43,103 bases of DNA from Chlamydiota bacterium (GCA_013287015.1 JABDEO010000002.1:1-43103), one strand, 5' to 3'. Shown: positions 8,741 to 39,580, counted from the first letter of the stretch. Numbers and translations are program-made. Notes: generated by a model not told the origin, from the sequence alone.

Positions 8741-9109
8741 GAACCAAAAGCTTGATGTCTTATTCATTTTTGCATCATTTTTTCTCTCATTATGTAGCCC
8801 ACACTAAGGTGTAGCGAGCCCTAGCGAGCGGAACCGCGGTGTGGGAATATCATGAATACACGACCTAACCAGGGACTGGTTCTTCATTTTTATCTTTTTT
8901 CCCTCTTTTTAAAATCGAAGGCTTAAATATTTTTCTGTAAAAAAAGCAAAAAAGACAAAAAAAGAAGAACTGGTCCCCAGTTAGGCTATGTATTCATCGT
9001 GTTCCCACACCTGCGGTTCCGCTCGCTTGGGCTCGCTACACCTTAGTGTGGGCTACGTAATGAGAGAAAAAATGATGCAAAAATGAATAAGACATCAAGC
9101 TTTTAGTTC
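8741..9109. repeat. Giant imperfect palindrome: arms of about 145 bp and a T/A-rich spacer of about 78 bp
   Basis: Left arm 8741-8885 (GAACCAAAAGCTTGATGTCTTATTCATTTTTGCATC...GGACTGGTTCTTC) is the reverse complement of right arm 8964-9109 (GAAGAACTGGTCC...GATGCAAAAATGAATAAGACATCAAGCTTTTAGTTC). The outer 60 bp or so are almost perfect, and several differences are T/G (wobble-compatible). Confidence 0.95.
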
Positions 9110-9145
9110 TGAAAGGATGGCATAAAAAAACAACAGTTTTTGTTT

Positions 9146-9772
9146 TTAATCGCACCCAGGATCATGGGCGGCGTTAACCACCAAAGAGGCGACAGCCCCG
9201 CCTAGTAAATTTCCTACTATGAAAATCCAGATGTTTGACCAATGGCTTAAATTGAGAATGGTTATTCCTAATGCAACCGCAGGATTAAAAGCTCCGCTTG
9301 AGATCGCTCCCACAGCATAAGCGCCTGCTAGAACTGTAAAGCCGATCGCCCACCCGAAATATGAATTTCCAGCTGTTTCTTTTACAGTAGCGACATTCAA
9401 TACAACATAACATAAGGCGAAGGTAAAAAGAAATTCCGAAAGGAGAGCTTTAAGATGATCGGGTTCAAGAGGGACCGAGGCGCGTCCTCCTTTGAGATAG
9501 ATAGTCATGAAAGCCGCAGCGGCGCCTCCCGCAAGCTGAGCGATCCAATACAACCACAGATCGCGAAGAGCCAATTTCTTGCGTAAGAAGACTGCTAATG
9601 AAACAGCGGGATTGTAATGTCCTCCGGAAATATGTCCTCCGGCAAAAACCATGACAGCCAACACGGATCCGATAGCTAATGGAGCCAACAACCCCGCATC
9701 GTTGTTAAAAACAGTCATCCCTACAGTCAAAACTAAAAAAAATGCGCCTATAAATTCGTATAGATACTTCAT
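9146..9772 (-). CDS. Aquaporin / MIP-family channel
   Basis: Two NPA boxes (HISGGHYNPAVS and SGAFNPAVA) and six hydrophobic segments. Likely start MKYLYEFIG at 9772, preceded by GGAG; the track ORF extends to 9847. Confidence 0.9.
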   Translation of the reverse strand: MKYLYEFIGAFFLVLTVGMTVFNNDAGLLAPLAIGSVLAVMVFAGGHISGGHYNPAVSLAVFLRKKLALRDLWLYWIAQLAGGAAAAFMTIYLKGGRASVPLEPDHLKALLSEFLFTFALCYVVLNVATVKETAGNSYFGWAIGFTVLAGAYAVGAISSGAFNPAVALGITILNLSHWSNIWIFIVGNLLGGAVASLVVNAAHDPGCD

Positions 9773-9921
9773 GGAAGGCTCCAGTAAATTTATTTCAATA
9801 TAAATGTTACCGCATTTTTTGCCTAAAAAAATGATGCTTGAACTCATCTTGAGCTAACCATTTTAATAAAAAAAACAACAATAAATGGAAAAAAGAAATA
9901 ACAAAAAGAATAAAAAAATGA

Positions 9922-9949
9922 TTGCATTTTTTAAAAAAAAGAATATATT
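9922..9949 (+). promoter_or_regulatory. Candidate sigma-70-type promoter for the 799-aa gene
   Basis: TTGCAT (9922-9927), a 16-nt spacer, then TATATT (9944-9949) in an AT-rich divergent intergenic region. GAGGAG Shine-Dalgarno at 9981-9986. Sequence pattern only. Confidence 0.3.
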
Positions 9950-10000
9950 GAAGAATATAGAGCCACCTCTCTTTCTAATATTAACGCGAGGAGAAAATAT

Positions 10001-12400
10001 ATGACAGAATCAAATAATGTCACTTTTTTTCCATCTAATGGCAATTTTCTTCCATCTATAGAACCTTTCCGGCCGCCTTTTTTAAAAAAAAGCACATTGG
10101 ATTATCCTCCAACTATCAACTCTTCCAAAAAATTTTCTTTTACAGCTCGACTAATAGAGAAATGCAAAAAAGACAAAAACGACATTATTTTCGCAGATTT
10201 ACAGAGCATCCAGACCGAGCGCAGCGATAAACAGAAAAAAAATAGCGGAACTCGCATCATCCTCCCAAGCTTAGCAACTGAAAATGAGCCGGAAAATGCG
10301 AGAACTTCCAGAAAAATCACATCGACCGCCGTCAAAGGACCATTGAAAATCGCACTGCAAGAAAAATCTTTTAATGAAAATAAAAAAACATCCCCTAAGA
10401 ATATTTTTTCTCCTCGAGCCGCCTCGCCTCGAAAGGAATTATCTCCAAAAAGTTTAACCTCCCCTAAAAATACTACGAGGAGAGAGAGATCGCTTTCCGA
10501 TGAGATACATTTTTTTCGACTTACTCAACTAGGGCCTCGCGGCAATTACACACGGCAATTTCAAGAATTTTTAAAATTGAGCGACACGTATAGCATTGCC
10601 AGTGAAGAGGAACAGAAACTTCTTATTAGCGACTTAAGAAAAGAAGCGGAAGCGTTGCGTAAAGAGGCTGATAGGCTCTATAACGTTTTAAAAGGCTTAT
10701 TAATGGCCGTGGACAACATACATCAAATTCCTCGCGAAAAAGAAGAGATCGGTCAATTTTCCAAAGTGTTAATCAAGCAAATTCAATTTTTAGATTTTGG
10801 TTTAAGCTTTCCACATCTGGACAAAGGCTTTGTTTCATTACGAAGAGACTATTTTTACTTTGGACATAATCACGCTCATTTTGCACGCGCCTATGTCGAA
10901 TCCCGCTACCTGAACATGCCCACGATATGGATGAAAACGGGCAGTGGAAAATCTTTTGAATATTTTTGCGGTTACACTTCCCCCGGACGAGACTGGATGG
11001 TCTGCAGCGCCTCCTATCGAGGCGCCATGTGGAAAAATACAACGACAGGCAAATATTCTATAGATAAACAACAGGGAAGCGAATGGATGGAGATCAATTT
11101 GCACAAGCCCTTGCCGATATGGAAAGATCAAAAAACCGGAGAATACGCCTGCAGTGTTTCTGTTTTGGGCGCGGATTGGCAAGAATTACAAGAAATGGAA
11201 ATCCTCCAATTACTCGCCGATGCAGGAAAAAATGTTGAAACTTTTCATCATGCTGGATTGGAAAACACTTTGAAAAAGGCCGTGGACGATGCGCTTACAT
11301 CGCCTTCTTCATCCCGTAAACTCCCTATGGTTAAAGAGACCGTCGATCAGTTGAGGGTCGCTCAAGATACGCTCAAAAGGCGACAATTAATGCAAATGCA
11401 CCTGGATGCGAAATTTGCAAAATTGTCCGTTGATTGGGACAGAGCTCCAAACGCCACGACGCTAAAAGTCGCTCGCCCGGGAACTACCAGGGAGACGATC
11501 GCATGTGGGAAAAAGAAAAGCCCGATGGAGCTTCCGTCATTTTCCCAAGTTAAGGATTATGTAACGCGGATGGGAGGAGTGGAAGCTTTCATCGATTGCA
11601 AAATGTGTTTAGAGGACCTTTTGGCTTTCTATAAATTCATAAATGCGCATCGATTCTCAGTAAAAGAAAATAATAAAGAGGCTCAATGGAGCCTTGCGAC
11701 ATGCTCTCAACTTAAACAAGCGATTCTGACTATACTGTCGACAACAAAAAAAGAGGACGCTCAAAGCAAAATGCGACATTCTATAAAATTTGCACCGGAA
11801 GTCGCGCTGGATGGAAAAATATACGAGATAAGGAACAAACAAGTAAAATATGAAACATTCAATAGGCATTTGTTAAAAATTCAAAAGCGAAGCGCGATAT
11901 TGACGTTTGAAGATTTAACGGCGATGGAAAAAATAGAAAATTGCGGAAAGCAAATCGTCAGAGCTTTTGAACGAGAACTTTGGAGAGATTGGAGTCGACA
12001 AATCGAAAAAGAAACAGCCAAGTTATTACAAGAAGAAATGCAGGGACTGCTTGACATCGAAGATTCAATGGAAACAATACAAAAAGTCGCTGAAGAACGG
12101 GTCATGAATACAATGGGGCAGGTGTACCCGATGCTTGTTTACACATTTGACGAAATACTGAACAAATTAGCTGATGAGGTTGAAGCGGGAATTCTTAATA
12201 AAAAAATAATTATAGAAGGAATGCTTCTTGAAATAGAACAGAGCATCTGGCGTAAGGAGGATGCATTAGCCGTAGAAGAACAGATGTCCGATGATTTGAT
12301 CATGGAAGGAATACAACTTCTAAAAGAAATATTCGAAAATCCTCATTTGAGAATAACGCTAGAAGGTTTTTTCCTTAAACAAGAAGTCGTCAAGCAATAG
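10001..12400 (+). CDS. Large hypothetical protein with a disordered Ser/Lys/Pro-rich N-terminal region and a coiled-coil-rich C-terminal half; candidate effector
   Basis: 799-aa ORF with a good Shine-Dalgarno. Five S-P-[KR] motifs at residues 131-156. Glu/Lys-rich heptad-like segments in the C-terminal 250 aa. No family recognised. Confidence 0.7.
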   Translation: MTESNNVTFFPSNGNFLPSIEPFRPPFLKKSTLDYPPTINSSKKFSFTARLIEKCKKDKNDIIFADLQSIQTERSDKQKKNSGTRIILPSLATENEPENARTSRKITSTAVKGPLKIALQEKSFNENKKTSPKNIFSPRAASPRKELSPKSLTSPKNTTRRERSLSDEIHFFRLTQLGPRGNYTRQFQEFLKLSDTYSIASEEEQKLLISDLRKEAEALRKEADRLYNVLKGLLMAVDNIHQIPREKEEIGQFSKVLIKQIQFLDFGLSFPHLDKGFVSLRRDYFYFGHNHAHFARAYVESRYLNMPTIWMKTGSGKSFEYFCGYTSPGRDWMVCSASYRGAMWKNTTTGKYSIDKQQGSEWMEINLHKPLPIWKDQKTGEYACSVSVLGADWQELQEMEILQLLADAGKNVETFHHAGLENTLKKAVDDALTSPSSSRKLPMVKETVDQLRVAQDTLKRRQLMQMHLDAKFAKLSVDWDRAPNATTLKVARPGTTRETIACGKKKSPMELPSFSQVKDYVTRMGGVEAFIDCKMCLEDLLAFYKFINAHRFSVKENNKEAQWSLATCSQLKQAILTILSTTKKEDAQSKMRHSIKFAPEVALDGKIYEIRNKQVKYETFNRHLLKIQKRSAILTFEDLTAMEKIENCGKQIVRAFERELWRDWSRQIEKETAKLLQEEMQGLLDIEDSMETIQKVAEERVMNTMGQVYPMLVYTFDEILNKLADEVEAGILNKKIIIEGMLLEIEQSIWRKEDALAVEEQMSDDLIMEGIQLLKEIFENPHLRITLEGFFLKQEVVKQ

Positions 12401-12443
12401 GGCGACTGGCTACCTTCCTTAGCCCTCACTTTTAATTGCACCC
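12400..12443. repeat. Solo half-copy of the CCTTCCTTAGCCCTCACTTTTAATTGCACCC cassette
   Basis: GGGCGACTGGCTACCTTCCTTAGCCCTCACTTTTAATTGCACCC matches 31612-31659, and matches 31018-31053 in reverse complement. Confidence 0.9.
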
Positions 12444-12486
12444 ATAGTTTTGGAAGAACTGGACTTGTACAAAATTTTCCGTAATA

Positions 12487-13878
12487 ATGCTTAGAATAAT
12501 CCAAAACGAGCTGAGAAAGACCTTGTTTAAAATCTTGACCCCCCCCTTATCATGCACACAGGTGTTTGATCGAAAATCTTCATTAATTCTTGTATTGCTA
12601 TGCTTGCCTCTTCTCTTCTTTCCAAAAATTAATCTAATCAAACTCTCACAAGGAGAAACAGCTGGTTTACGCATTGACGACCTCATCTTATTCTTCTTTT
12701 CGATCGTTCTCTTATGGGCTCATTTTTCTATGCGGAATTTTTTTTTTAAAATTGAATTGTGGGTGTTTGCACTCGTCTGTTTCTCATTTTTCTCTTACTT
12801 CTCTAATAAAATATTGGTTCTAATAGAGGTTTTACCTGTAAATTCGAAAATTTTTTACTGCGTCCGTATTTTCGAATATTTTTTGTTTTTCTATGTGGGA
12901 GCGATGGCCTCCCAGTTTTTTAGAGAAAATCGGATTATTAAGGCGTTTTTTATTTGGAATTTAAGTTTGATGTTGTTGCAAAAGGCCGGAGTGATAGGAG
13001 AGTTCAACTCTATGTCAGGATATAACGCCGAAGGAGCGTATCGCGTTTCGGGAATTGCATCGTTTCCATCTGAAATGGGAGCTCTTTTAAATTTGATGTT
13101 TTGTTATTTTCTTTTCGAACCTCCACAAAACGCAAAAAGTTCTTCATTGCTTCCATCGCTATTAAAAAGAATAATTCAGCGCACCTATATCTACTGGTTA
13201 TTTTTTTTATTTGCCGTTCTCGTGATTTTAACAGGATCGCGCATCGCTCTTGTTGCGCTCATCCTCCCGTTTTTCGTAAAATTAAAAGAGGAATTTCGTT
13301 CAAGGAATATAGAATCGGTCTTTGCCGCGATGTTTTTTTTGCTATTCGCTACAGCTATTTTATTTTTCTTTATTGCCAATACGGAATCCATCGCAACGCG
13401 CAGCCAGGGTTTATTATCGTGGCGCAATCTTGATTTAGTGAAAAATGTCTGGCAAGTCCAAGATATCACATTGGGATCCGATGATGTCAATGAGATCTCT
13501 TATGAAGGCTATGACTTGAGCTGGTGGATCCGCATCCATAAATGGTGCTATGCATTAAAAATGTATGTGTCGCACCCGGAAAACTATTTGCAAGGGATAG
13601 GACCTGGTTTTGCCTGGTTGGCGTTGGATGGCGGATTGTTGCGTATTTTGGTTGAATACGGACTGCTCGGCTGCGTCATTTTTTGGCGCCTTTTTCGCTC
13701 CATTTCGCAACAGAATGTACAGCTGAAATGGATGGTTGTCGCCCTAGTGATCAATATGATTTTCTTTGACAGTTATTTGGCTTATAAGCCGATGAGCCTG
13801 CTTTTCTTTGTCGCCGGATACGCCCACTCGCAGGGCGCACAGACCCGAGACAATTGCAAAAGTCTTATGCAAAGGTGA
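12487..13878 (+). CDS. O-antigen ligase family (Wzy_C/WaaL-like) polytopic membrane protein
   Basis: 463 aa with about 10-12 hydrophobic segments. It has the family-typical ILTGSRIALVALILPFF block followed by a large loop. It lies next to a wzm/wzt locus, where a ligase rather than a polymerase is expected. Confidence 0.7.
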   Translation: MLRIIQNELRKTLFKILTPPLSCTQVFDRKSSLILVLLCLPLLFFPKINLIKLSQGETAGLRIDDLILFFFSIVLLWAHFSMRNFFFKIELWVFALVCFSFFSYFSNKILVLIEVLPVNSKIFYCVRIFEYFLFFYVGAMASQFFRENRIIKAFFIWNLSLMLLQKAGVIGEFNSMSGYNAEGAYRVSGIASFPSEMGALLNLMFCYFLFEPPQNAKSSSLLPSLLKRIIQRTYIYWLFFLFAVLVILTGSRIALVALILPFFVKLKEEFRSRNIESVFAAMFFLLFATAILFFFIANTESIATRSQGLLSWRNLDLVKNVWQVQDITLGSDDVNEISYEGYDLSWWIRIHKWCYALKMYVSHPENYLQGIGPGFAWLALDGGLLRILVEYGLLGCVIFWRLFRSISQQNVQLKWMVVALVINMIFFDSYLAYKPMSLLFFVAGYAHSQGAQTRDNCKSLMQR

Positions 13879-14031
13879 GCGCTTACCCCTCTCTGTGCTC
13901 TCTGTGGGCTCTGTGGCAGCCAAAAAGCCTTAAATTGAATCATTTTAAGGCTTTATATCCACCACAGAGCCCACAGAGAGCACAGAGAGGGATAAGCGCT
14001 CACCTTTGCATATTATCCAAGACTTTTGCAA
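13854..14031. repeat. Palindromic element (arms of about 63-70 bp) with an inner CCTTAAATTGAATCATTTTAAGG hairpin
   Basis: TTGCAAAAGTCTTATGCAAAGGTGAGCGCTTACCCCTCTCTGTGCTCTCTGTGGGCTCTGTGG (13854-13916) pairs with CCACAGAGCCCACAGAGAGCACAGAGAGGGATAAGCGCTCACCTTTGCATATTATCCAAGACTTTTGCAA (13962-14031). The left arm contains the last codons and the TGA of the upstream gene. Confidence 0.95.
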
Positions 14032-15349: not shown

Positions 15350-15353
15350 GATT

Positions 15354-16710: not shown

Positions 16711-16785
16711 ACGCTTACGGGCTCTGTGGTTGATATAAAACCTTAAATTGAATCATTTTAAGGCTTTTTGGCAACCACAGAGCGC
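16711..16785. repeat. Short palindromic element of the CCTTAAATTGAATCATTTTAAGG family, located inside the wzm-wzt spacer
   Basis: ACGCTTACGGGCTCTGTGGTTG...CCTTAAATTGAATCATTTTAAGG...CAACCACAGAGC. It shares the core and the CTCTGTGG/CCACAGAG arms with 13854-14031. Confidence 0.9.
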
Positions 16786-19480: not shown

Positions 19481-19553
19481 ATTTCTTTGATCAATTTTCT
19501 TGTTTGAGTCATATTAACTCAAACCATGGAATTCAGAATACAGAATTTAGCGT

Positions 19554-19620
19554 TTTTGGAGTCAGGCCTGACACTATGGCGCTTTTAAAAGCGTTATAGT
19601 ATCAGGCCTGACCCCAAAAA
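19554..19620. repeat. 67-bp palindrome carrying two GTCAGGCCTGAC-type cassettes
   Basis: TTTTTGGAGTCAGGCCTGACACTATGGCGCTTTT|AAAAGCGTTATAGTATCAGGCCTGACCCCAAAAA, immediately downstream of the histidine kinase stop codon. Confidence 0.95.
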
Positions 19621-19626: not shown

Positions 19627-22050
19627 TCAAGTCTGACCCAAATGCAGGCAGCTTTGAAGTTTTCGAATGAGCTCAATGCGCGTCACCGGTTTAATGATGA
19701 TATCATTGCAACCCACTTCAAAGCATTGCTTTTTTTCTTTCTCCGTTGCATAGGCCGTCAAGGCGATAATAATTCCTTTATACCCATCGGCGCGCAATTT
19801 TTTTACCGCTTCGAATCCATTAAGCTCAGGCATTTGAATATCCATTAAAATAAGGTCAAAAGGTTTACTGGGTTCATTTAATGATGCGATGGCTTTCTGA
19901 TAGGCGACTTTGCCATTTTCCGCAGATTCAACAACAGCGCCGGCGCTCGAAAGATAAAAAACAATGAGACGCATAATATCCATGTCGTCCTCCGCTAAAA
20001 GAATATGGGCTTGAATATTATCGTCGCCTTCTTCTTCATCCTTTTGCGTCTCTCGTTTTTGAACAATGGGTTCTATCGATATAGGTCCTCCAGGAATTGA
20101 CAGAGTGAATACGCTTCCTTTCCCCAGTTTGCTGGAACACGTGAGTTGTCCTCCTAACGCCTCTGCAAGCTGCTTGGAAATCATTAACCCTAATCCTGCG
20201 CCTTTTGGATCGCTTAAAACAGGGTTGTTGGCTTGATAATAAGGCTTAAACAAATTGGAAAGCTGCGCTTGAGTCATGCCAATTCCCGTATCAGTCACTT
20301 CAAATTGAATAAAGAAATTAGCCTTGTTCATATCAAACATTGTTACAATAATGCCTATTTTTCCCGATTTTGTGAATTTGATGGCGTTGCTTACAAGATT
20401 CATTAAAATCTGCGTGAGTCTGCGTGGATCCGTTTTCATTGTCGTAGAGATCATATTGACAAACGTCACTTCCAACTTAAGATTCTTTTCCTCCGTTTTT
20501 GGTCGAAAAAGAGTCAACACTTCATGCATAATCGCTTGAACGGAACAAGAAATTCGGTCGACATGTTGCCTTGCATCTAATTCCTCAAAATCTAAAACAT
20601 CGCTAATAATATCCAGCAATAAGCGTCCATTGCGCTGCACTATTGCGAGATACTCTAAACGTGTATCAAGAGTTATTTTCGGAGACAACGCCAAATCACA
20701 GTACCCCAGCATCGCAGTCAGCGGAGTCCTTATTTCATGGCTCATGCAAGATAAAAACTCGCTTTTTGCTTTAGAAGCTTTTTCAGCTAAATCTCTTGCT
20801 TGATTTACAGAATTTTCAAGCCGTCTTCTCTCTGTGATGTCTTGAACAACGCTTATAAAAAAACGTTCGCCATCGACCGTCCAAGCATAAAGCGAAATCT
20901 CCATAGGAAATTCCAAACCATCGCTTTTTAGGCCTTTCAATCGCTCTGTTCGATCGATATAATGAATCTTTTCAACCTCTAAATATCGCTCTATCTCAGA
21001 CTGATATTCATCACGATATTTTTTCGCTAAGATCATTGTAAACGGTCTTCCTAACGCCGCTTTCTCTGCGTATCCAAAGATTCTTTGCGCGGCATTGTTC
21101 CATCCAATGATTTTTTTTTGATTGTCCGCCAAAATGATGGCGTCATGATTTTCATAAATAAAGGTCTCCCAACGATGCTTCAAATCCAATGCGATTCGCT
21201 GCTCTCGTCTGGCTGATTGACCCATAAAAATCGCAACCATGCTCAATATTGAGCCGCAGAGTCCGAACACCAATACGGTCAGAGCGATCGGCGACTGCTG
21301 AACCTCGATTCTTTCGCGCTGATAAATCTCAAGAGCTTGATAGAATCCAAGCGTTGATACAAGAGCGATAATGCCGACGGGAATGACAAGCCATTTCTTG
21401 AACATTCCACGTTTTTCATCCTCAAACATCCAGGCCGATGTGAAAATACCGCTCCCACCTATAATAAGCGCCAAAGCGGCGTGCAGAGCGATAGGCGATG
21501 AATGGCGCCAGTGAAACGCCGGAGTGACCTGAGTGATAAAGCCGAGCAGGCTGATTATTCCAAAAGCGATAGCGACAGAAGCGATCACAGCGCTCGTCAA
21601 ACACTGCAGTCTGAATGAAGGGCGCCAGCATAAAATAAAAACAGAAATGCAATACAAGATAAAGGAAACAGCGGTATTGATCGACATATGCGTTGCATAG
21701 CGGCGCGCAAATTCTTTTGATGCGGCCGTGAACAAGCTATCTACATCCAACTGCATTTCGAAAAAATCATTCGCCTGGGCGATGGCGACAATCAGTAGAA
21801 TGGTCCCGGCGCAAACTATCGCTATAGAACGCTTGTTGTAGGCAAGAGCGAATAGAGCGCAACCATAAATAATAAGCATGAAAGCGGTATTGGCGTTCAT
21901 AACCGGGAAACCATACGCCATCCGCAGCAAAATCGGAATCTCTGCATACAATCCCACAAAGGTCAATCCGCCCGTTAAAATGCAGATAAAACCGCAAAAC
22001 ACAACCCAAGCCTTAAGCAAACAACGCGAGTTCGATTGAATATTCAACAT
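19627..22050 (-). CDS. Hybrid sensor histidine kinase / response regulator (polytopic N-terminal sensor, PAS, HisKA, HATPase_c, REC)
   Basis: About 8 N-terminal TM segments, a PAS-like block (DAIILADNQKKIIGWNNAAQRIFGY), H-box SHEIRTPLTAMLGY, G-boxes DTGIGM and GAGLGL, and a receiver domain with LILMDIQMPELNG. Confidence 0.9.
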   Translation of the reverse strand: MLNIQSNSRCLLKAWVVFCGFICILTGGLTFVGLYAEIPILLRMAYGFPVMNANTAFMLIIYGCALFALAYNKRSIAIVCAGTILLIVAIAQANDFFEMQLDVDSLFTAASKEFARRYATHMSINTAVSFILYCISVFILCWRPSFRLQCLTSAVIASVAIAFGIISLLGFITQVTPAFHWRHSSPIALHAALALIIGGSGIFTSAWMFEDEKRGMFKKWLVIPVGIIALVSTLGFYQALEIYQRERIEVQQSPIALTVLVFGLCGSILSMVAIFMGQSARREQRIALDLKHRWETFIYENHDAIILADNQKKIIGWNNAAQRIFGYAEKAALGRPFTMILAKKYRDEYQSEIERYLEVEKIHYIDRTERLKGLKSDGLEFPMEISLYAWTVDGERFFISVVQDITERRRLENSVNQARDLAEKASKAKSEFLSCMSHEIRTPLTAMLGYCDLALSPKITLDTRLEYLAIVQRNGRLLLDIISDVLDFEELDARQHVDRISCSVQAIMHEVLTLFRPKTEEKNLKLEVTFVNMISTTMKTDPRRLTQILMNLVSNAIKFTKSGKIGIIVTMFDMNKANFFIQFEVTDTGIGMTQAQLSNLFKPYYQANNPVLSDPKGAGLGLMISKQLAEALGGQLTCSSKLGKGSVFTLSIPGGPISIEPIVQKRETQKDEEEGDDNIQAHILLAEDDMDIMRLIVFYLSSAGAVVESAENGKVAYQKAIASLNEPSKPFDLILMDIQMPELNGFEAVKKLRADGYKGIIIALTAYATEKEKKQCFEVGCNDIIIKPVTRIELIRKLQSCLHLGQT

Positions 22051-27202: not shown

Positions 27203-27526
27203 GCGCATTGGGGTCAGGCCTGGGCTGAAACGAATGACCGATTTTCGAAGAAAATCAGCTTGGGGTTTACCCCCTAATTTTGGCGCCGTTTTTCGACGCC
27301 AGTGAGTGGTAGGGACGATGGGGACTCAAGCGACCTTAGGGACATTAGAGACAGGGACAATCAGCTTGTTTGTCCCTGTCTCCAAGGTCCCTAAGGTCGC
27401 TTGAGTCCCCATCGTCCCTACCACTCACTGGCGTCGAAAAACGGCGCCAAAATTAGGGGGATAAAACCGGGCTGAATTTTGAAGATACTCAACCATTCGT
27501 TTCAGCCTAGGCCTGACCCAATGCGA
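27203..27526. repeat. 324-bp giant palindrome, copy 1 (arms of about 155 bp; terminal GGGTCAGGCCTG cassettes)
   Basis: CGCATTGGGGTCAGGCCTGGGCTGAAACGAATG...GGTAGGGACGATGGGGACTCAAGCGACCTTAGGGAC...centre...GTCCCTAAGGTCGCTTGAGTCCCCATCGTCCCTACC...CATTCGTTTCAGCCTAGGCCTGACCCAATGCG. The inner 100 bp or so of each arm pair almost perfectly. Confidence 0.97.
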
Positions 27527-28199: not shown

Positions 28200-28399
28200 C
28201 TCCTATGGCTTTATTTTCTTAAATCTCGCGGAACACACGTGTTTTATGTTTTAAGCGCTGTGATTATATTTCTAAATGCCGCGGTAAAAATGCAAAACAA
28301 TGTCTGTTCCGCGTTCTTTATATTACCAAACGCCGCTGGAAGGAAACAAGAATTTTATGCATTGGAGTCAGACCTGACCCCACTTTAAGTAAATCATTA

Positions 28400-28454
28400 G
28401 GACAGGGGCTTCTCGAAATGCCCATTGAAATTGAAGATTTCATATTAAAACAAA
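28400..28454. repeat. Relic copy of the 3' end of the AtuA-partner gene (direct repeat of 27079-27133)
   Basis: GGACAGGGGCTTCTCGAAATGCCCATTGAAATTGAAGATTTCATATTAAAACAA compared with GGACAAGCGATTCTTGAAATGCCCATTGAAATTGAAGATTCCATATTAAAACAA. Confidence 0.9.
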
Positions 28455-28508: not shown

Positions 28509-28700
28509 ATTCAACGCAAAGGCGCAAAGACGCAAAGGCGCAAAGAATAGATTTGGCCAACTCCATTGCAAGGAATAAAAATTAATGTCAGATGAGTCTG
28601 ACTTATCCTTCCTATCCTTCCTATCCTGAAATTAATTTTTATTCCTTGCAATGAAATGAGCCGCATCTATTCTTTGCGTCTTTGCGCCTTTGCGTTGAAT
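28509..28700. repeat. Two-layer palindrome with 8-mer (CGCAAAGR) and 9-mer (TATCCTTCC) micro-tandem repeats
   Basis: Outer arms are ATTCAACGCAAAGGCGCAAAGACGCAAAGGCGCAAAGAATAGAT (28509-28552) and ATCTATTCTTTGCGTCTTTGCGCCTTTGCGTTGAAT (28665-28700). Inner arms are CATTGCAAGGAATAAAAATTAAT (28564-28586) and ATTAATTTTTATTCCTTGCAATG (28631-28653). The loop contains GTCAGATGAGTCTGAC and (TATCCTTCC)x3. Confidence 0.93.
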
Positions 28701-31017: not shown

Positions 31018-31659
31018 GGGTGCAATTAAAAGTGAGGGGTTAAGGAGGTAGCCAGGGCGTCCCGCCCTGCTTTTTAGGCAAAAAAACATTGAAGATAATA
31101 CACGCGACCAGGGCGGGACGCCCTTCCATATAACGCAGCCCTTTTGCACGTGTTATTTAACGCGAGTTTTGGGAGTTTGACGCTTTGATGCTTTTAAAAG
31201 CGCCAGGGTATTTTGGGGGTCAGGCCTGACCTGGGCTGAAACGAATGACCGATTTTCGAAGAAAATCAGCTTGGGGTTTACCCCCTAATTTTGGCGCCGT
31301 TTTTCCACGCCAGTGGGTGGTAGGGACGATGGGGACTCAAGCGACCTTAGGGACCTTGGAGACAGGGACAAATAACCTGATTGTCCCTGTCTCCAATGTC
31401 CCTAAGGTCGCTTGAGTCCCCATCGTCCCTACCACTCACTGGCGTGGAAAAACGGCGCCAAAATTAGGGGGATAAAATACGGCTAATTTTTTTCAAAAAT
31501 CAGTCATTCGTTTCAGCCCAGGCCTGACCCCAAAATACGCGCCAAAGCGTCAATGTCAGGACAATCGTTTATCCAAAACTCGCGTTATTTACAGACAAAC
31601 ACCGCGGAGCCGTAGGGCAACTGGCCACCTTCCTTAACCCCTCACTTTTAATTGCACCC
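31018..31659. repeat. Composite four-layer nested palindrome of about 640 bp; the innermost layer (31211-31537) is copy 2 of the 324-bp element
   Basis: Layer 1: GGGTGCAATTAAAAGTGAGGGGTTAAGGAGGTAGCC (31018-31053) pairs with GGCCACCTTCCTTAACCCCTCACTTTTAATTGCACCC (31623-31659). Layer 2: CCAGGGCGTCCCGCCCTG (31052-) and CCAGGGCGGGACGCCCT (31108-). Layer 3: TTATTTAACGCGAGTTTTGG... (31153-) pairs with CCAAAACTCGCGTTATTTAC (31574-31593). Layer 4: GGGGTCAGGCCTGAC...CAGGCCTGACCCC. Confidence 0.95.
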
Positions 31660-31664: not shown

Positions 31665-32003
31665 TTACACGTCCAAGATCAACCGTATGGCATCGTCAAC
31701 AAGTTTCATCTCTTCAATTGACAATTCGCCGATTTTGTCTCCAAGCCTTTTAGTTCTATCTATAGACCTCATCTGCCTTGGAACGACTTTTCCAGCTCTT
31801 CCAGCCAAATTAATTTTCACCTCAATTTTCGAAAAAATGCGCTCTACATTACTCGTGATTGGGGCGACAACAATCAATTCAGAACGATTCGCAATGTCGC
31901 TGGAAATAATAAGACAAGGACGCGTCTTGTTTATTCCTTTACCATCAGTTGGATCTAAACGCACCCAGTAAATATCACCTCTTTTTGGATAATCATTTTT
32001 CAT
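31665..32003 (-). CDS. mazF: Type II toxin-antitoxin system toxin, PemK/MazF family endoribonuclease
   Basis: 112 aa. PKRGDIYWVRLDPTDGKGINKTRPCLIISSDIANRSELIVVAPITS is the canonical PemK/MazF N-terminal pattern. It overlaps the upstream antitoxin gene by 11 nt. Confidence 0.88.
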   Translation of the reverse strand: MKNDYPKRGDIYWVRLDPTDGKGINKTRPCLIISSDIANRSELIVVAPITSNVERIFSKIEVKINLAGRAGKVVPRQMRSIDRTKRLGDKIGELSIEEMKLVDDAIRLILDV

Positions 32004-32262
32004 TTACTGTCTGTTCTCCAAAATCAAAATCGTCCATCCCAATAAAATCTTCACCTTCAATATTAGAAAAATTTTGTTTAACTTCGATATTTCCAATGTC
32101 TTTATCAGCTTCTAAAAACTCCATTAGTAAAGTTTTTTCATCTTTCTTGAGAGCTTCCCACAAAGCCTGAGTGACGAATTTACTCATTTTACCTCGCCCA
32201 ACCCTAGTGTGTAGAGCGGCATCCAACTGCTCAGGAATTGTATATGTTACAGCTTTTTTCAT
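31993..32262 (-). CDS. Cognate antitoxin (ribbon-helix-helix-like N-terminus, acidic C-terminal tail)
   Basis: MKKAVTYTIPEQLDAALHTRVGRGKMSKFVTQALWEAL (RHH pattern), then an acidic tail (EGEDFIGMDDFDFGE). AGGAG Shine-Dalgarno upstream of the ATG at 32262; the track ORF starts further upstream at 32304. Confidence 0.75.
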   Translation of the reverse strand: MKKAVTYTIPEQLDAALHTRVGRGKMSKFVTQALWEALKKDEKTLLMEFLEADKDIGNIEVKQNFSNIEGEDFIGMDDFDFGEQTVNEK

Positions 32263-32388
32263 GATAATGTAACTCCTCTTTGCTTGAATTATACATATAT
32301 TCATATATATTTATCAAGTCCAAAGCTTGGTATATTTGAATATTTCAACATAAAAAATCCCTTCTTGGTTATAATTAATAACATCATT

Positions 32389-33801: not shown

Positions 33802-34908
33802 TTATTCGCTCGAGTGCAAAGCCCACGCTGCAACCTCTTCCTCTATAGTGTTGTAGCGCTGATAATCCTCATATTCCTCACAATTCTCAAACTCGTCATG
33901 ACCGATTAATTTTTCAATGTTTCGAAAAATGCTGCATATTTCTTCGACTTTTTCATATTCGCCATTGTAGATTATTTTATGAAGATTTGTTAGTTGCTCC
34001 GGTGTGAATTGAATGTTCGCATTCGCATTCCGTTCAACAAGTATTTTTTTTTGGCCTTCTGACAAAGTCATTTTAAAGTTTGAAACTGATGTTCGAAGCT
34101 CATTGACATCGTTGCTATCCAAAGTTTCTATTATATCCATGGCTTCGTCGGCATACAATTCAGCGAATTCCTTACCATATTGTTTTTCAATCGATTCTTT
34201 TAATTCATCAGGCAACACTTGACTGCCTCCTGTCCTATATAAACCATATAAATATTTTAAAGCTTCATCACTCTCAGCATCTTTTTTCTCCACTTTGTCA
34301 GCAAGAAAGGAGAAAAGCCCATAATAAAGCGATTTGAAAGCCTCAGACCGAATTTTTTCCGATTCGCCTTTAGTATTTATCAAAAATACCAAGTAGTAAC
34401 GACTCATTTTTTTTAATACATCGATAAGCGGTTGGATTAATGATAATTTAGGAGGAGGCTCGCTTACACTCCAGTCATCTAATACTTTTTTTAAAACCCC
34501 CAAAGCTGTTATACTTATTGGCTTTTCTGAAATACGTTCACATAAAACGCCCATATCTATCATTTTTTTATCTTCCAACCGAATTTTTTCTTCACATTGG
34601 GCGATAATTTTTTCAAATTGCTCCCTCAGCAGCGTTATTCCTACCGCTTCGGGACTTATTTTTTTCATAAACAGATTCATAAGAAATTCTTTCGATTTCT
34701 CGGAATTTACAGTTCCCGATTGCAATCCTTTAATTTTATTAATTAACTGTTCTAATGAGACTGAGACTCCTTCCATTGATTCTGATTTTTTAAACACATG
34801 ACCATGCGATTTTTCTCCGGGAGAATACACAAGTTCTGCACTGAATTTTTCTAATTGACTCCAATTTTCTATTCCTTGCAATGGGTTGTTCTCAGATATA
34901 GAAGTCAT
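33802..34908 (-). CDS. Acidic helical hypothetical protein, tandem paralog A (368 aa)
   Basis: Long ORF sharing most residues with 35123..36259, including a conserved upstream region of about 110 bp. No signal peptide, TM segment or recognisable family. Confidence 0.7.
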   Translation of the reverse strand: MTSISENNPLQGIENWSQLEKFSAELVYSPGEKSHGHVFKKSESMEGVSVSLEQLINKIKGLQSGTVNSEKSKEFLMNLFMKKISPEAVGITLLREQFEKIIAQCEEKIRLEDKKMIDMGVLCERISEKPISITALGVLKKVLDDWSVSEPPPKLSLIQPLIDVLKKMSRYYLVFLINTKGESEKIRSEAFKSLYYGLFSFLADKVEKKDAESDEALKYLYGLYRTGGSQVLPDELKESIEKQYGKEFAELYADEAMDIIETLDSNDVNELRTSVSNFKMTLSEGQKKILVERNANANIQFTPEQLTNLHKIIYNGEYEKVEEICSIFRNIEKLIGHDEFENCEEYEDYQRYNTIEEEVAAWALHSSE

Positions 34909-35122
34909 GACACCCTCCTAATTTTTACAAATGTTGAAATAATAAATAAATATAAACAATAAACTGTATTATTACTTACATAATAACCTATAAAAATAAA
35001 AAACACACAATTTATTATTTAAAGTAATCAGATCGTCCCGACCTGATTACTGATGCATTCAAGGCCGGGACGGCCTTGTTATCTTATACCGCCACCATGA
35101 CTTTTTAAGGACGTACCTAAAA

Positions 35123-36259
35123 TCATCTTATTCGCTCGAGTGCAAGAACCCACGCTGCAACCTCTTCCTCTATAGTGTTGTAGCGCTGATAATCCTCATA
35201 TTCCTCACAATTCTCAAACTCGTCATGACCGATTAATCTTTCAATGTTTCGAAAAATGCTGCATATTTTTTCGACTTTTTCATATTCGCCATTGTTGATT
35301 ATTTTATGAAGATTTGTTAGTTGCTCCGGTGTGAATTGAATGTTCGCATTCCGTTCAACAAGTATTTTTTTTTGGCCTTCTGACAAAGTCATTCTAAAGT
35401 TTGAAAGTAGTGTTTGAAGCGCCTTGACATCGTTGCTATCCAAAGTTTCTATTATATCCATGGCTTCGTCGGCATACAATTCAGCGAATTCCTTACCATA
35501 TTGTTTTTCAATCGACTTTTTTAAAACATTAGGCAAGGCTTGACTGCCTCCTGTCCTATATAAATCATATAAATATTTTAAAGCTTCATCACTTTCAGCA
35601 TCTTTTTTTTCCACTTTGTCAGCAAGAAAGGAGAAAAGCCCATAATAAAGCGATTTGAAAGCCTCAGACCGAATTTTTTCCGATTCGTCTTTAGTATGTG
35701 TCAAAAATAAAAGGTCGAAACGAGGCATTTTTTTTAATACATCGATAAGGGGTTGGATTAATGATAATTTAGGAGGAGGCTTGCTTATATTCCAGCCATC
35801 TAATATTTCTTTTAAAACCCCCAAAGCTGTTATACTTATCGGATTTTCTGAAATACATTCACATAAGGTGCGCATATTTATCATTCTTTTATCTTCTACC
35901 CGAGATTTTTCTTCATCTTGTGTTAATGAAAGTTCAGGAAATGCTTGAGTAATGATTTTTTCAAATCTCCCTCTTAGCAGCGTTATTCCTGGCGCTTCGG
36001 GGCTTATTTTTTTCATAAACAGATTCATAAGAAATTCTTTCGATTTCTCGAGATTTACGGTTCCCGATTGCAATGCTTTAATTTTGGTAATTAACTGCTC
36101 CAATGAGACTGAGATTCCGTCCGTTGATCCTGATTTTTTGAACACATGACCATGCAATTCTTTTTCGGAGGGAGAATACTCAAATTCTGAACTGAATTTT
36201 TCTAATTGACTCCAATTTTCTATTCCCTGCAATGGGTTGTTGTCAGATATAGAAGTCAT
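35123..36259 (-). CDS. Acidic helical hypothetical protein, tandem paralog B (378 aa)
   Basis: Same family as 33802..34908. It has a 10-aa insertion (AFPELSLTQD) and a different C-terminal tail caused by a 1-nt indel near the 3' end. Confidence 0.7.
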   Translation of the reverse strand: MTSISDNNPLQGIENWSQLEKFSSEFEYSPSEKELHGHVFKKSGSTDGISVSLEQLITKIKALQSGTVNLEKSKEFLMNLFMKKISPEAPGITLLRGRFEKIITQAFPELSLTQDEEKSRVEDKRMINMRTLCECISENPISITALGVLKEILDGWNISKPPPKLSLIQPLIDVLKKMPRFDLLFLTHTKDESEKIRSEAFKSLYYGLFSFLADKVEKKDAESDEALKYLYDLYRTGGSQALPNVLKKSIEKQYGKEFAELYADEAMDIIETLDSNDVKALQTLLSNFRMTLSEGQKKILVERNANIQFTPEQLTNLHKIINNGEYEKVEKICSIFRNIERLIGHDEFENCEEYEDYQRYNTIEEEVAAWVLALERIR

Positions 36260-36456: not shown

Positions 36457-36691
36457 AATAACGCGAGTTTTGGATAAACGATTGCCCTGATATTGACGCT
36501 TTGGCGCGTATTTTGGGGTCAGGCCTGACACTATGACACTTTTAAAAACGCCAGTATGACACGTTTCAAAGCATCATACTGGCGTTTTTAAAAGTGTCAT
36601 AGTGTCAGGCCTGACCCCAAAAATACCCTGGCGCTTTTAAAAGTATCAAAGTGTCAAACTCACCTTTGCACGTTGTGCAAGACTTTTGCAA
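36457..36691. repeat. Mosaic repeat block: AACGCGAGTTTTGGATAAACG cassette, a 113-bp GTCAGGCCTGAC palindrome (36511-36623), a GCGCTTTTAAAAG cassette and a CACCTTTGCA...GACTTTTGCAA cassette
   Basis: 36457-36536 is the reverse complement of 31521-31593. 36511-36623 is a palindrome (TTTTGGGGTCAGGCCTGACACTATGACACTTTTAAAAACGCCAGTATGA...). 36623-36660 is the reverse complement of 31177-31213. 36661-36691 resembles 14001-14031. Confidence 0.93.
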
Positions 36692-36836
36692 TTATTTGAG
36701 GACATGCCCTTTGGTCTTTTAGGTCCTTCAGGTCCCTTAAGGTCCCTCCGTCCTTAAATTTGTTTTTTGTGTTGTGGGGAAAATGAGGATTCAGTAGAAG
36801 TAGGGGTCACCGTTTTTATTAGATGCAGGGGCAAAC

Positions 36837-38018: not shown

Positions 38019-38049
38019 ACGGAACATTTAGGCTTTTTTTATCCATTCC

Positions 38050-38303
38050 TTCGCGCAGCGTTTGGAGTGCGTGCGACTTGTCGCCGCTTTGGAAGACCTC
38101 GACTTGTCGAGGTCGAAGCGTAAATCTAAAATACCCAAAAGCTGGCGTTTTTAACGTTGAACAGGTCATATTGTCGATAGCAAAACGCTTTCCCATGTTA
38201 ACGTAAGCTAGCTTCTAGATGTTTTAGATTCACGCTTCGACCTCGACAAATCGAGGTCTTCCAAAGCGGCGACAAGTCGCACGCACTCCAAACGCTGCGC
38301 GAA
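38050..38303. repeat. 254-bp palindrome (82-bp arms, loop of about 90 bp) unrelated in sequence to the other families
   Basis: TTCGCGCAGCGTTTGGAGTGCGTGCGACTTGTCGCCGCTTTGGAAGACCTCGACTTGTCGAGGTCGAAGCGTAAATCTAAAA (38050-38131) pairs with 38222-38303. Each arm has an internal hairpin, CCTCGACTTGTCGAGG. Confidence 0.95.
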
Positions 38304-38353
38304 AGAAAAGTTAAAAAAAACTAAAATCGAATCTGTAAATCACTGCATTTTGT

Positions 38354-39253
38354 ATGATAAAATCTCCCGACAATGACAAACCCGCATCAAAAGAGCTTCA
38401 GCTTGCAATAAAAACTTTGCAAACAGCCTTTAGAAGACTTTTAAAGCGCGCTCGGAAACGAAGAGACGGCACGCTGCAAGATCTTAATAAATGTCTGGAA
38501 TGGAATGCTTTACATCACGAGGCGCTGCTCCTGCAAGCCAACTTGTTTCAAATAAAAAAAGGCATGCGGGAGATCATTGTTGAGGACTGGGATGGCGGCC
38601 AGAAGCGGAAAATCACTCTAAATCCTCAATTTGAACCGCATATTGAGGTGACTAAACGATTCAAGCAAAGCAAAAAATTGCGGGCAGGCGTCCCCTATCG
38701 CAAAATTCTACTAGAAAAAGTTGAACAAGAGATCAAGCGTTATGAAAGCTGTCTAGCTGAGTTGGAAACTATTGACTCCTTGGAAGCCCTCGTTCCTTTG
38801 CAACAATATTTGCCAAAACTTAAAACTCCAAAGTCGATCAATGCCGCCCCAGAAGCCCTTCCCTTCCGAGAATTTTTTTCGTCCAGCGGCTTGCTTCTGT
38901 GGGTAGGTAAAAGCGCCAAAGATAATGAAGCGCTCACTTTCCGGCACGCCAAAGGATCAGATTGGTGGCTGCATGCGCATGAGTTCCCAGGCTCCCACAT
39001 CGTTCTTAGAGTCAAAAAAGACCAGTCCCCCGATCCAGATGCATTGCAAGACGCTCTTCAGCTAGCTCTCCATTACAGTAAAGCCAAAAATCAAGGTTCG
39101 GCGGAAATTTGCGTAACGCAATGCAAATATGTTGCACGCTTTGGCAGGGGTAAAATCGGAAAAGTCCATATTTCCAAGCATCAAGTTGTATTCGTTAAAA
39201 ACGATCCCGAACGCCTTCAAAATCTGAAAGACAGAAAGCGCGAGAGAACTTGA
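38354..39253 (+). CDS. DUF814 / NFACT-R domain protein (RqcH/FbpA C-terminal-like)
   Basis: 299 aa with the hallmark DUF814 block GSDWWLHAHEFPGSHIVLRV preceded by coiled-coil sequence. Confidence 0.8.
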   Translation: MIKSPDNDKPASKELQLAIKTLQTAFRRLLKRARKRRDGTLQDLNKCLEWNALHHEALLLQANLFQIKKGMREIIVEDWDGGQKRKITLNPQFEPHIEVTKRFKQSKKLRAGVPYRKILLEKVEQEIKRYESCLAELETIDSLEALVPLQQYLPKLKTPKSINAAPEALPFREFFSSSGLLLWVGKSAKDNEALTFRHAKGSDWWLHAHEFPGSHIVLRVKKDQSPDPDALQDALQLALHYSKAKNQGSAEICVTQCKYVARFGRGKIGKVHISKHQVVFVKNDPERLQNLKDRKRERT

Positions 39254-39432
39254 TGCCCCGCTTCTTTATTCGGAGATGGTGAGGCGGAGGAAACTTTTTC
39301 AACTAATCCATGGAAAAAATCATAAACGCGATTCGCCCAAGACAGCATTGTATTAAACGCTTCGGGAAAGAAAATCCAGATCAAATAGAACAGGAATCCA
39401 AAGAAAAAAAAGTAAAAAATAAATCTAAACAT
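39217..39432 (-). CDS. Possible small Phe-rich membrane protein (71 aa)
   Basis: N-terminal hydrophobic helix FIFYFFFFGFLFYLIWIFF. GAGGT-type Shine-Dalgarno 7-12 nt upstream of the ATG at 39432. Its 3' end overlaps the convergent DUF814 gene by 37 nt. No homology support. Confidence 0.35.
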   Translation of the reverse strand: MFRFIFYFFFFGFLFYLIWIFFPEAFNTMLSWANRVYDFFHGLVEKVSSASPSPNKEAGHQVLSRFLSFRF

Positions 39433-39532
39433 ACCTACCTCTGACCTCTGAAAACTTTAAGGTTCAATAATTTCTTTATCTATACCTCGTATTATCAGAT
39501 TACCTTAAAATTAGCAAGCGATCATGCATGAC

Positions 39533-39580
39533 GAAGGAAGGTAGCCAGGGCGGGACGCCCTGGTTACCTTCCTTAGCCCT
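39533..39580. repeat. 48-bp hairpin cassette AAGGAAGGTAGCCAGGGCGggaCGCCCTGGTTACCTTCCTT, directly after the MFS-PlsC stop codon
   Basis: Perfect or near-perfect stem of about 20 bp. It shares the CCAGGGCGGGACGCCCTGG and CCTTCCTTAGCCCT cassettes with 31041-31125, 31623-31640 and 12410-12425. It probably also acts as a terminator. Confidence 0.9.

Follow-up and report, generated by a model that had tools for sequence, protein, structure and literature searches.

Palindromes between the genes of a chlamydial contig

The window analysed here is an entire contig of 43,103 nucleotides (nt) from a Chlamydiota bacterium (JABDEO010000002.1), with a G+C content of about 43% and an intergenic share of 13.3%. 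Its intergenic spacers carry long palindromes, which are the subject of this report. A reading made earlier from the DNA alone (the sequence-only reading) had listed 13 regions with long inverted repeats, many of them assembled from re-used cassettes. The genes among which these regions lie include a type III secretion cluster (SctJ, SctL, SctR and SctT homologues at 1848-6390), and other products are Wzm/Wzt, glycosyltransferases, a hybrid histidine kinase, SulP, a porin, AtuA, two DUF502 proteins, MnmE, MetK, an NFACT protein and an MFS-acyltransferase. The window holds no tRNAs, and a search of it with Rfam 15 gave 0 matches at the gathering score.

Window genes share 65-73% nucleotide identity with Parachlamydiaceae genome bins, and the closest MetK proteins, some of them labelled 'Parachlamydiaceae bacterium', reach at most 82% amino acid (aa) identity. 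Judged by these gene comparisons, the host is an uncultured, Parachlamydiaceae-like chlamydia-related bacterium that has no close relative in the databases. A Logan look-up of the window's terminal genes, aimed at extending the contig ends, returned no record.

A repeat finder returned inverted-repeat arms of 153, 149, 121, 99, 78, 73, 69, 49 (perfect), 36, 31 and 29 nt. For 11 of the 13 listed regions the RNA folding energy lies 7-35 standard deviations below that of dinucleotide shuffles (z scores of -7 to -35), compared with z scores of +0.9 to -4.9 for control intergenic and coding stretches. These 11 are thus strong palindromes, but the remaining two regions did not hold up as inverted repeats: 12400-12443 corresponds to one arm alone of the outer element found at 31018-31659 (z = -0.5), and 43049-end is severed by the end of the contig (z = +0.2). 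Summing the lengths of the palindromic regions gives about 2.7 kb, out of 5.7 kb of intergenic DNA. Off-centre local hairpins have a density of 9.1 per kb in these regions versus 3.1 per kb in coding DNA, and 12-mers that recur on either strand account for 24% of intergenic versus 1.2% of coding sequence, the coding figure having been obtained with one gene duplication set aside.

Recurring units are designated as follows. Unit U consists of GGGGTCAGGCCTGAC followed by ACTATG..TTTTAAAA, and unit V of GGGTGCAATTAAAAGTGAGGG..AAGGAAGGTAGCCAGGGCG; W, X and Y denote further arms, E a 300-nt palindrome, and family B the palindrome type found at 38026-38327. The elements and associated features of the window are:

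8739-9111: 373-nt palindrome between the convergent genes of a YjbH-like protein (stop 8710) and an MIP channel (stop 9146); outer arms of 99 nt at 97%, inner arms of 74 nt at 76%; z = -34.6
8867-8881 (+) and 8982-8968 (-): face-to-face terminator-like hairpins within 8739-9111, with a T-run after each
12400-12443 (+): solo arm of unit V, CTGGCTACCTTCCTTAGCCCTCACTTTTAATTGCACCC, beginning at the stop codon of the gene at 10001-12400
13854-14031: nested palindrome between convergent genes; inverted repeat 13866-14012 with 73-nt arms; outer W arms TCACCTTTGCA..GACTTTTGCAA, then runs of the word CTCTGTG, then an inner 65-nt element at 13906-13970; z = -23.5
16719-16783: second copy of the 65-nt palindrome (85% identity), here alone, abutting the wzm-like stop (16785) inside the wzm-wzt operon; inverted repeat at 16721-16783 according to the repeat finder
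19553-19620: 68-nt palindrome formed by a pair of inverted U units, with 6 nt between it and the stop of the gene at 19627-22050 (-)
23884-24072: 189-nt palindrome starting 3 nt after the SulP stop; 78-nt arms at 96%; small perfect hairpins GCGCAGGTTttAACCTGCGC and GCGGGTTttAACCCGC, then T-runs; begins GTAG, ends CTAC; z = -23.8
27203-27526 (+): element E copy 1, a 300-nt palindrome between convergent genes; inverted repeat 27211-27519 with 153-nt arms at 87%; ends GGGGTCAGGCCTGGGCTGAAACGAA; z = -28.3
28361-28384: degenerate, uninterrupted 18-mer, CATTGGAGTCAGACCTGACCCC
28389-28453: duplicate (86%) of the AtuA-C gene's 3' end
28509-28700: palindrome whose arms carry GCGCAAAG(G/A)C word runs
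31018-31659: 642-nt composite nested like an 'onion', separated by 5 nt from the mazF-like stop (31665); unit V arms outermost, forming a perfect 29-nt inverted repeat at 31018/31659; then, moving inwards, CCAGGGCG-NNN-CGCCCTG hairpins, the reverse complements of arms Y and X, and E copy 2 at the centre; z = -30.8
31212-31535: element E copy 2; inverted repeat 31223-31529 with 149-nt arms at 89%
35022-35078: two small hairpins that have the conserved tip CGGGACG/CGTCCCG and whose stems differ (TCAGATCGtccCGACCTGA; CAAGGCCGggaCGGCCTTG), downstream of where the gene at 35123-36259 (-) has its stop
36457-36691: XY element, oriented oppositely to that at 31159-31594; no other palindrome lies in a divergent spacer; core at 36511-36622 with perfect 49-nt arms (100%), followed by a solo W arm at 36660-36691
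38026-38327: family B palindrome at the metK-NFACT junction; 121-nt arms at 88%; ends CGCAGCGTTTGGAGTGCG plus two sub-hairpins around GACTTGTC; z = -23.2
39524-39584: 61-nt hairpin of V-type sequence, AAGGAAGGTAGCCAGGGCG gga CGCCCTGGTTACCTTCCTT, abutting the stop of the gene at 39584-41443 (-); z = -7.4
43049-43103: cassettes AAACGCGAGTTCTAGATAAACG and CTCTGTG words, severed by the contig end

Modules are re-used and a finished palindrome was copied

Units U, V and W and the sub-hairpins measure 15-45 nt, occur 2-6 times each in the 43 kb, and are all intergenic. Inverted doublets of U form the palindromes at 19553-19620 and 36511-36622. Unit V supplies the outer layer of 31018-31659, the solo arm at 12400 and the entire hairpin at 39524-39584, while W flanks 13854-14031 (where, together with the CTCTGTG runs, it encloses the 65-nt palindrome) and recurs as a solo arm at 36660. 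The XY element is present at 36460-36660 and, inverted, at 31159-31594, and its two copies differ in their cores: the first holds the perfect palindrome with 49-nt arms, the second holds E. Both 31018-31659 and 36457-36691 are mosaics. The units are therefore seen as solo arms, as doublets and as nested composites, of which inner and outer layers also occur alone elsewhere.

Some arms are built from still smaller pieces. Those of 23884-24072, of parts of 31018-31659 and of 38026-38327 consist of successive sub-hairpins, each of 15-26 nt, and other arms repeat words of 7-10 nt (CTCTGTG, GCGCAAAGG, GGGAC, TAGCGAGC). The sharing of cassettes claimed in the sequence-only reading stands, and the cassette positions given there agree with ours, some of them to within one base or one mismatch. 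Its headline 18-mer, GGGGTCAGGCCTGACCCC, fared less well, having no intact copy in the window, where the closest matches carry 2-3 mismatches; the 13-mer half-site GGGGTCAGGCCTG is present 6 times.

The two copies of E, at 27212-27511 and 31223-31522, are 91% identical. When their four arms are aligned, 8 arm-specific differences are common to both copies and one compensated change is copy-specific. Left arms share 90% identity with each other and right arms 87%, versus 84-85% between left and right within a copy. Because both copies inherit the same left/right differences, an already finished, imperfect palindrome must have been duplicated, rather than each copy having arisen by independent fold-back.

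Two observations concern the surroundings of these elements. A 65-nt stretch of the AtuA-C 3' end (27067-27131) is duplicated at 86% identity 1.3 kb downstream, where the degenerate 18-mer directly precedes the duplicate; between both copies lie E copy 1 and an unannotated 193-aa open reading frame (ORF). A run of AGGTCC(C)TT words at 36700-36760, which lies upstream of metK by about 80 nt, complements the GGGAC words of E and the CGGGACG tips at 31053, 31110, 35030, 35067 and 39552.

Syntenic relatives lack the elements

Gene junctions that hold palindromes in the window are tight in related genomes. The wzm and wzt genes overlap by 1 nt in a Parachlamydiaceae locus (L066; other loci are numbered likewise), versus a 165-nt spacer in the window, where the 65-nt palindrome directly adjoins the wzm stop. 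The gene order DUF502-DUF502-mnmE-metK-NFACT-(MFS) is common to loci L126 and L127. At the metK/NFACT junction there is a 4-nt overlap in L126, while the gap is 10 nt long in L124 and 43 nt long in L127, versus 335 nt in the window, including a 302-nt palindrome. Similarly, mnmE and metK are separated by 60 nt in L126 and L127 versus 3 kb in the window, and the distance from DUF502 to mnmE is 240 nt in L126 versus 1.5 kb in the window, which has there the 642-nt composite and a mazEF-like gene pair. Neither L126 nor L127 has an inverted repeat of at least 24 nt between its genes.

The presence/absence comparison proposed in the sequence-only reading thus gave four loci (L066, L124, L126 and L127), all from distant relatives, in which the elements are missing at syntenic junctions. 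Relative to these loci the elements appear to be insertions, and a gain in the window rather than a loss in the relatives would be favoured by parsimony and by the overlapping reading frames.

The NFACT-family gene at 38354-39253 encodes a short form of 299 aa that lacks the first roughly 200 residues of a 457-aa Parachlamydia homologue (L043). Truncation by the neighbouring palindrome, an idea raised by the comparison with L043, was dropped: the short form is a lineage trait and not palindrome damage, because the closer relative L126 has the same 299-aa form and no palindrome.

Other features of the same neighbourhood also differ from, or are shared with, the syntenic loci. The mazEF-like toxin-antitoxin pair at 31665-32304 is missing from L126 and L127 and adjoins one of the largest composites. 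Two tandem low-G+C paralogous ORFs (368 and 378 aa, no family match) at 33802-36259 are missing from the same two loci and likewise lie next to the largest composites. Intergenic positions 39302-39426, 3' of the NFACT gene, are 72% conserved with L127:6891-7015, the neighbouring genes being only 67-72% identical; the stretch may be a small gene or RNA.

Related repeats in other genomes

A genome collection was scanned with the exact 18-mer GGGGTCAGGCCTGACCCC, and this yielded both chlamydial relatives and loci from other phyla. The first 25 nt of E occur exactly in L025, from the Parachlamydiaceae metagenome-assembled genome (MAG) CAWACC01, and in three JGI metagenome contigs. An E arm is recognisable over about 75 nt in L119 and L121; in L120 only the 25-nt E end passes BLAST, and a further roughly 50 nt are similar by eye. 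The E-type element is not palindromic in L119, L120 or L121. Searches with E in a plasmid collection, with two element ends in viral contigs, and with the longest ORF inside E as a peptide query against predicted proteins gave no match.

Family B is found in four loci of two other chlamydial MAGs (L063, L086 and L117 of JABDBB01, and L057). Seven family B arms from three genomes share the invariant block GGAGTGCG and two sub-hairpins around GACTTGTC, whose stems vary in sequence yet are paired in 99% of cells. Both sides have changed in 7 of 15 base pairs, with 0 one-sided (wobble) changes, a covariation score attained by 0 of 500 shuffles. Sequence comparison thus indicates conservation of element ends between genomes that share only about 70% nucleotide identity in their genes.

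Further chlamydial loci carry repeats of the same general kind. In L025, L037 and L046 (Parachlamydiaceae), a U-like unit forms direct and inverted arrays and is accompanied by arrays of the 11-nt sequence TGACCCCTTTC. L122 and L124 have other long palindromes, some with CACAGAG/CTCTGTG words or a CCCAGGGCGTTGCCCTGGG hairpin. Among intact 18-mers in chlamydial loci, 12 of 20 stand at the tip or centre of a longer hairpin, for which the chance expectation is 1.6% per site.

Several observations at these loci stand apart. The TGACCCCTTTC arrays adjoin U-like units at L025:3420-3800 and L046:2200-2260, and with their 11-nt period have an iteron-like look. A Parachlamydiaceae MAG carries, at L046:1784-2051, a five-repeat CRISPR array of I-F type (Rfam CRISPR-DR4) between inverted GGGGTCAGGCCTGAC clusters, with spacer 1 identical to spacer 4. 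At L086:1100-2282 a lipoprotein-like beta-propeller gene (376-389 aa) lies, cargo-like, between inverted GGGGTCAGGCCTGAC half-sites. Outside the chlamydiae, the exact 18-mer is the centre of a multi-copy element of about 110 nt in Desulfobacterales/Thermodesulfobacteriota MAGs (loci including L002, L004, L017, L052, L081, L089, L095 and L100), which has CTCGATGATCAAGTTTTT terminal repeats and resembles a miniature inverted-repeat transposable element (MITE). It is also multi-copy, with varied flanks, in the gammaproteobacterial MAG DAIEGU01. The ENA metagenome contig L123 has about 36 T followed by about 36 A at 2371-2442, beside an ISL3 transposase, which is probably an assembly or homopolymer oddity.

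Proposed insertion and nesting of non-autonomous repeat units

We favour, with a probability of roughly 0.55, an explanation in which the palindromes are non-coding, non-autonomous repeat units of a few families native to environmental chlamydiae, which accumulated downstream of genes and became nested by repeated insertion. The units (single arms of about 30-45 nt, hairpin doublets of 60-300 nt) would then resemble repetitive extragenic palindromic (REP) sequences and the bacterial interspersed mosaic elements (BIMEs) composed of them, or MITEs. Empty sites in relatives, the copying of a palindrome as a unit, the separate modules and the conserved ends all agree with the non-autonomous, modular family of mobile type put forward in the sequence-only reading.

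The sequences flanking E suggest how such nesting could occur. They are GCGCATT and AATGCGA at copy 1 and GTATTTT and AAAATAC at copy 2, that is, inverted rather than direct repeats. Together with the uninterrupted 18-mer at 28361-28384, the central 18-mers and the separable layers, these flanks would fit an insertion process directed to the tips of hairpins already present. An enzyme with sequence specificity, whose gene lies in another part of the genome, would recognise the conserved ends and tips (GGGGTCAGGCC.., CGCAGCGTTTGGAGTGCG, GACTTGTC) and mobilise the units, and new copies would land by preference at the tip of an existing hairpin, whether a terminator or an earlier copy. Insertion of this kind would produce onion-like palindromes, inverted rather than direct flanks, and a position at the 3' ends of genes. 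After insertion the arms would decay neutrally, and those copies that carry a hairpin and T-run would probably double as terminators as a side effect.

Several points weigh against this explanation. Target-site duplications, which the sequence-only reading had looked to, are lacking at E (no 5-bp or 9-bp direct repeat), and none is clear at the 65-nt element or the family B copies; the targeting of tips is deduced from inverted flanks and not seen directly. A Pfam and NCBIfam scan of window ORFs of at least 100 aa found no transposase, integrase or HUH family, bearing out the earlier statement that no transposase is present. The surroundings of the motif in 117 other loci show no recurrent gene family; a transposase regularly found there had been considered and was rejected when clustering of all ORFs of these loci gave housekeeping families only. 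The relatives with empty sites are distant (MetK at most 82% aa identity), so deletion in them is possible, and the breakpoints lack base resolution. Finally, copies were counted within this one contig of the genome, in which the palindromes at 8739, 23884, 28509 and 38026 are single-copy.

A possible role as terminators or RNA structures at gene ends

The location of the palindromes invites a different explanation, namely that they are primarily functional terminators or 3'-end RNA structures, bidirectional at convergent genes and selected in place. Each of the seven co-directional spacers has its element 0-29 nt away from the upstream stop codon, and 26-398 nt separate it from the next start. 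Palindromes are carried by 4 of 6 convergent versus 1 of 5 divergent spacers, and those of L122 (3 of 3) and L124 (4 of 4) likewise follow stop codons within 50 nt. Moreover, 23884-24072 contains inward-facing hairpin and T-run modules at 23916-23935 (+) and 24040-24021 (-), a pattern that is repeated by the terminator-like hairpins of 8739-9111.

However, a T-run is lacking in many elements. On the sense strand, a G+C-rich hairpin with a T-run behind it was found in sub-modules of these two palindromes, and is missing from the U-unit palindromes, E, family B and 13854-14031. The U-unit palindromes are flanked in the order TTTT-hairpin-AAAA, which is the wrong polarity for a terminator, and elsewhere the mirror half of a palindrome often faces no gene, as at 24040-24021. 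Arms of 100-150 nt are far above what termination needs, and a plain terminator is available to this genome at 41549-41522. Relatives do without the elements at the same junctions, two of which (wzm/wzt and metK/NFACT) lie inside operons with overlapping genes, and identical modules stand at unrelated genes and in other genomes.

Among arm mismatches, A:C is as frequent as G:T whichever strand is considered, leaving no bias towards G:U on the transcribed strand. Rfam matches at E-values up to 0.1 were confined to generic miRNA-precursor models on both strands, below threshold. Because there is no mismatch bias, covariation is Watson-Crick only, without wobble steps, and no Rfam family matches, nothing points to selection on a strand-specific transcript. 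Selection at the RNA level was therefore discarded, and the proposal of long structured or double-stranded 3'-UTR (untranslated region) RNAs made in the sequence-only reading was left unsupported. Overall, we regard a primary role as terminators or 3'-end RNA structures as unlikely.

Possible relationship to insertion sequences

A second alternative holds that the palindromes are classical MITEs derived from insertion sequences (IS) with DDE transposases, of IS4/Tn5-like origin for family B and Tn3-like origin for E, and were spread by cut-and-paste or replicative transposition. This would account for their terminal inverted repeats, small size and lack of coding capacity. In L117, a Tn5-like transposase (Tnp_DNA_bind, DDE_Tnp_1, Dimer_Tnp_Tn5) begins 95 nt downstream of the family B end AATTCGCGCAGCGTTTGGAGTGCGGTGACTTGTC. 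However, this contig holds only one IS end, and the family B arm breaks off exactly at the tip of the first sub-hairpin, so the IS may instead have entered the repeat. Distant viral relatives of the transposase (27-32% identity) were of no help in defining the IS ends.

L120 has an IS4-like element within an E-type arm, and in L122 this element is found at a palindrome edge. It was considered as a parent IS on the basis of L120 and rejected, since comparison with the L122 copy places the IS end about 170 nt further in and shows that it is not the repeat end. The IS4-like element has 178 mostly fragmentary homologues in public data. In total, IS occur at palindromic repeats in three chlamydial loci (L117:3-1361, Tn5-like; L120:4893-5339 and L122:9905-11100, IS4-like). 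By analogy with other bacteria, where IS elements are known to favour REPs as targets, these may be parents of the repeats or IS that favour hairpin targets, and their placement suggests that hairpins are IS targets in chlamydial loci.

Of 38 positions in the Tn3 terminal repeat, the end of E matches 20, among them GGGGTC and TG.AACGAA, which stand at equal offsets. The same score is attained by 19 of 86,132 windows taken from the contig sequence, and Tn3 was chosen after the element had been seen. Tn3-derived inverted-repeat miniature elements (TIMEs) have Tn3-type inverted repeats of about 38 bp (GGGG, an internal ACGAAAA, then TAAG) together with a 5-bp duplication. With this weak likeness, no 5-bp duplication and no TAAG, a Tn3-type inverted repeat, or identity of E as a TIME, was not retained. 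More generally, the MITE-like character suggested in the sequence-only reading stands as regards terminal inverted repeats, small size, non-coding content and presence/absence, but membership among classical MITEs fails because target-site duplications are lacking and E is bordered by inverted repeats. An origin from DDE transposons accordingly strikes us as having about the same small probability as a primary terminator function.

Other explanations

A bolder possibility, to which we give a somewhat slimmer chance, is that GGGGTCAGG/CCTGACCCC, the conserved ends, are the signature of a mobile-DNA system not recognised before, one that inserts at hairpin tips without target duplication, can carry cargo between inverted half-sites and is shared across phyla. 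If so, its cargo would include a 300-nt palindrome in the window, the beta-propeller gene of L086 and the CRISPR array of L046, and its sharing across phyla would be reflected in the intact 18-mer that is multi-copy in Desulfobacterales, Parachlamydiaceae and the gammaproteobacterial MAG.

It is improbable that the palindromes arose locally, by replication slippage combined with template switching or fold-back synthesis that perfected small hairpins in place. The short-word runs in the arms would fit this origin, as would the strictly Watson-Crick covariation, the lack of target-site duplications and the 100% perfect palindrome at 36511-36622. Yet identical modules lie at unlinked loci, in both orientations and in other genomes, and the left/right asymmetries of E were inherited by both copies. 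Slippage and fold-back may nevertheless contribute to the growth of word runs and to arm repair.

Least credible by far are assembly or amplification artefacts such as chimeric inverted joins: although the window is a contig assembled from short metagenome reads and stops within a repeat, and Logan contig L001 breaks at palindromes, most arms are imperfect (76-97%), confined to intergenic DNA and end at stop codons, the palindrome at 19553-19620 is reproduced at 100% in L001 (SRR8433575, possibly the same reads), and related units or palindromes occur in chlamydial assemblies with contigs of 0.5-2.6 Mb (L005, L037, L046, L122).

Comparison with known repeat families

BIMEs are mosaics of short units that alternate in orientation. 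Together with REPs and REPINs (REP doublets forming hairpins), they occur in Enterobacteria and Pseudomonas and are mobilised by REP-associated tyrosine transposases (RAYT, or TnpA-REP) of the HUH type, whose genes typically have REPs on their flanks (Gilson 1991; Nunvar 2010, PMC2817692; Bertels and Rainey 2011, PMC3116915; Di Nocera 2013, PMC3733652). The window elements are likewise short extragenic hairpin units that appear as singlets, inverted doublets and mosaics made with few linker motifs, lie downstream of genes, have covarying stems, lack target-site duplications and receive IS insertions. The sequence-only reading had placed the arms far beyond REP/BIME elements. Long true arms do exist, and E, with 153-nt arms, is a true long-arm palindrome and not a REP string; however, several arms are composite and built, like BIMEs, as mosaic clusters of short alternating units, so the elements do not fall outside the REP/BIME kind.

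Other differences concern the enzyme, the tag and the host. No RAYT gene is present in the window, the only part of the genome searched. REP units carry the tetranucleotide tag GTAG (or CGTC) at one end. Here GTAG/CTAC brackets 23888-24068, and GGTAGCC stands at the base of the CCAGGGCG hairpins (31048, 39541), but the tag is missing from the GGGGTCAGGCC units and family B, and the brevity of a 4-mer precludes statistics. The host, moreover, is a chlamydia, and for this group our literature searches returned no report of such sequences. By analogy of structure and placement, REP/BIME/REPIN sequences are the nearest functional counterpart, and membership is not claimed.

Neisserial intergenic mosaic elements (NIMEs) are RS units bracketed by 20-bp dRS3 inverted repeats, and NIMEs and Correia elements were reportedly described in Neisseria by Parkhill in 2000. 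The window elements resemble NIMEs in that a short conserved palindromic repeat brackets variable cassettes in arrays downstream of genes, and they resemble Correia elements, which are palindromic MITEs of about 100-155 bp that affect transcription and termination. The sequences are nonetheless unrelated, Correia elements have a TA duplication, and dRS3 is an integration site for phage and IS110-type elements, whereas no such integrase was seen here.

Rickettsia palindromic elements (RPEs), which can be abundant in obligate intracellular bacteria, enterobacterial repetitive intergenic consensus sequences (ERIC, also intergenic repeat units, IRU), pneumococcal BOX elements (boxA-boxB(n)-boxC) and Nezha of cyanobacteria are comparable as non-coding long hairpins of 100-300 nt, some of them modular. 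RPEs differ in lying often in frame within genes, whereas the window elements are all intergenic, and none of these families is typically nested several layers deep into composite palindromes.

Insertion at or near a hairpin tip, as proposed here, would be shared with IS1397/ISKpn1 and IS110-family elements in REPs and with class C group II introns, which enter terminator stem-loops, and Tobes and Pareja reportedly treated mobile elements that target REPs in 2006. Those elements are autonomous and encode proteins or ribozymes, in contrast to the non-coding palindromes seen here. Eukaryotic foldback (FB) elements also have long inverted arms of short tandem sub-repeats and variable length; they belong to another kingdom, and the analogy is one of architecture, with no relation implied.

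Significance for chlamydial genomes

Elements of these kinds are well known in other bacteria, and we came across no account of REP-, BIME- or MITE-type repeats in Chlamydiae in the literature that we searched. Contigs assembled from de Bruijn graphs end at repeats, and the window contig and Logan contig L001 both stop inside one; the repeats therefore probably fragment chlamydial genome assemblies. The elements could serve as markers for strain typing, and their nested layers, inverted flanks and lack of target duplication offer a natural data set for hairpin-targeting insertion. Recurrence of the 18-mer palindrome in unrelated phyla merits a systematic survey. For the host itself, the splitting of the formerly overlapping operon genes wzm/wzt and metK/NFACT means that transcription units have probably been rewired.

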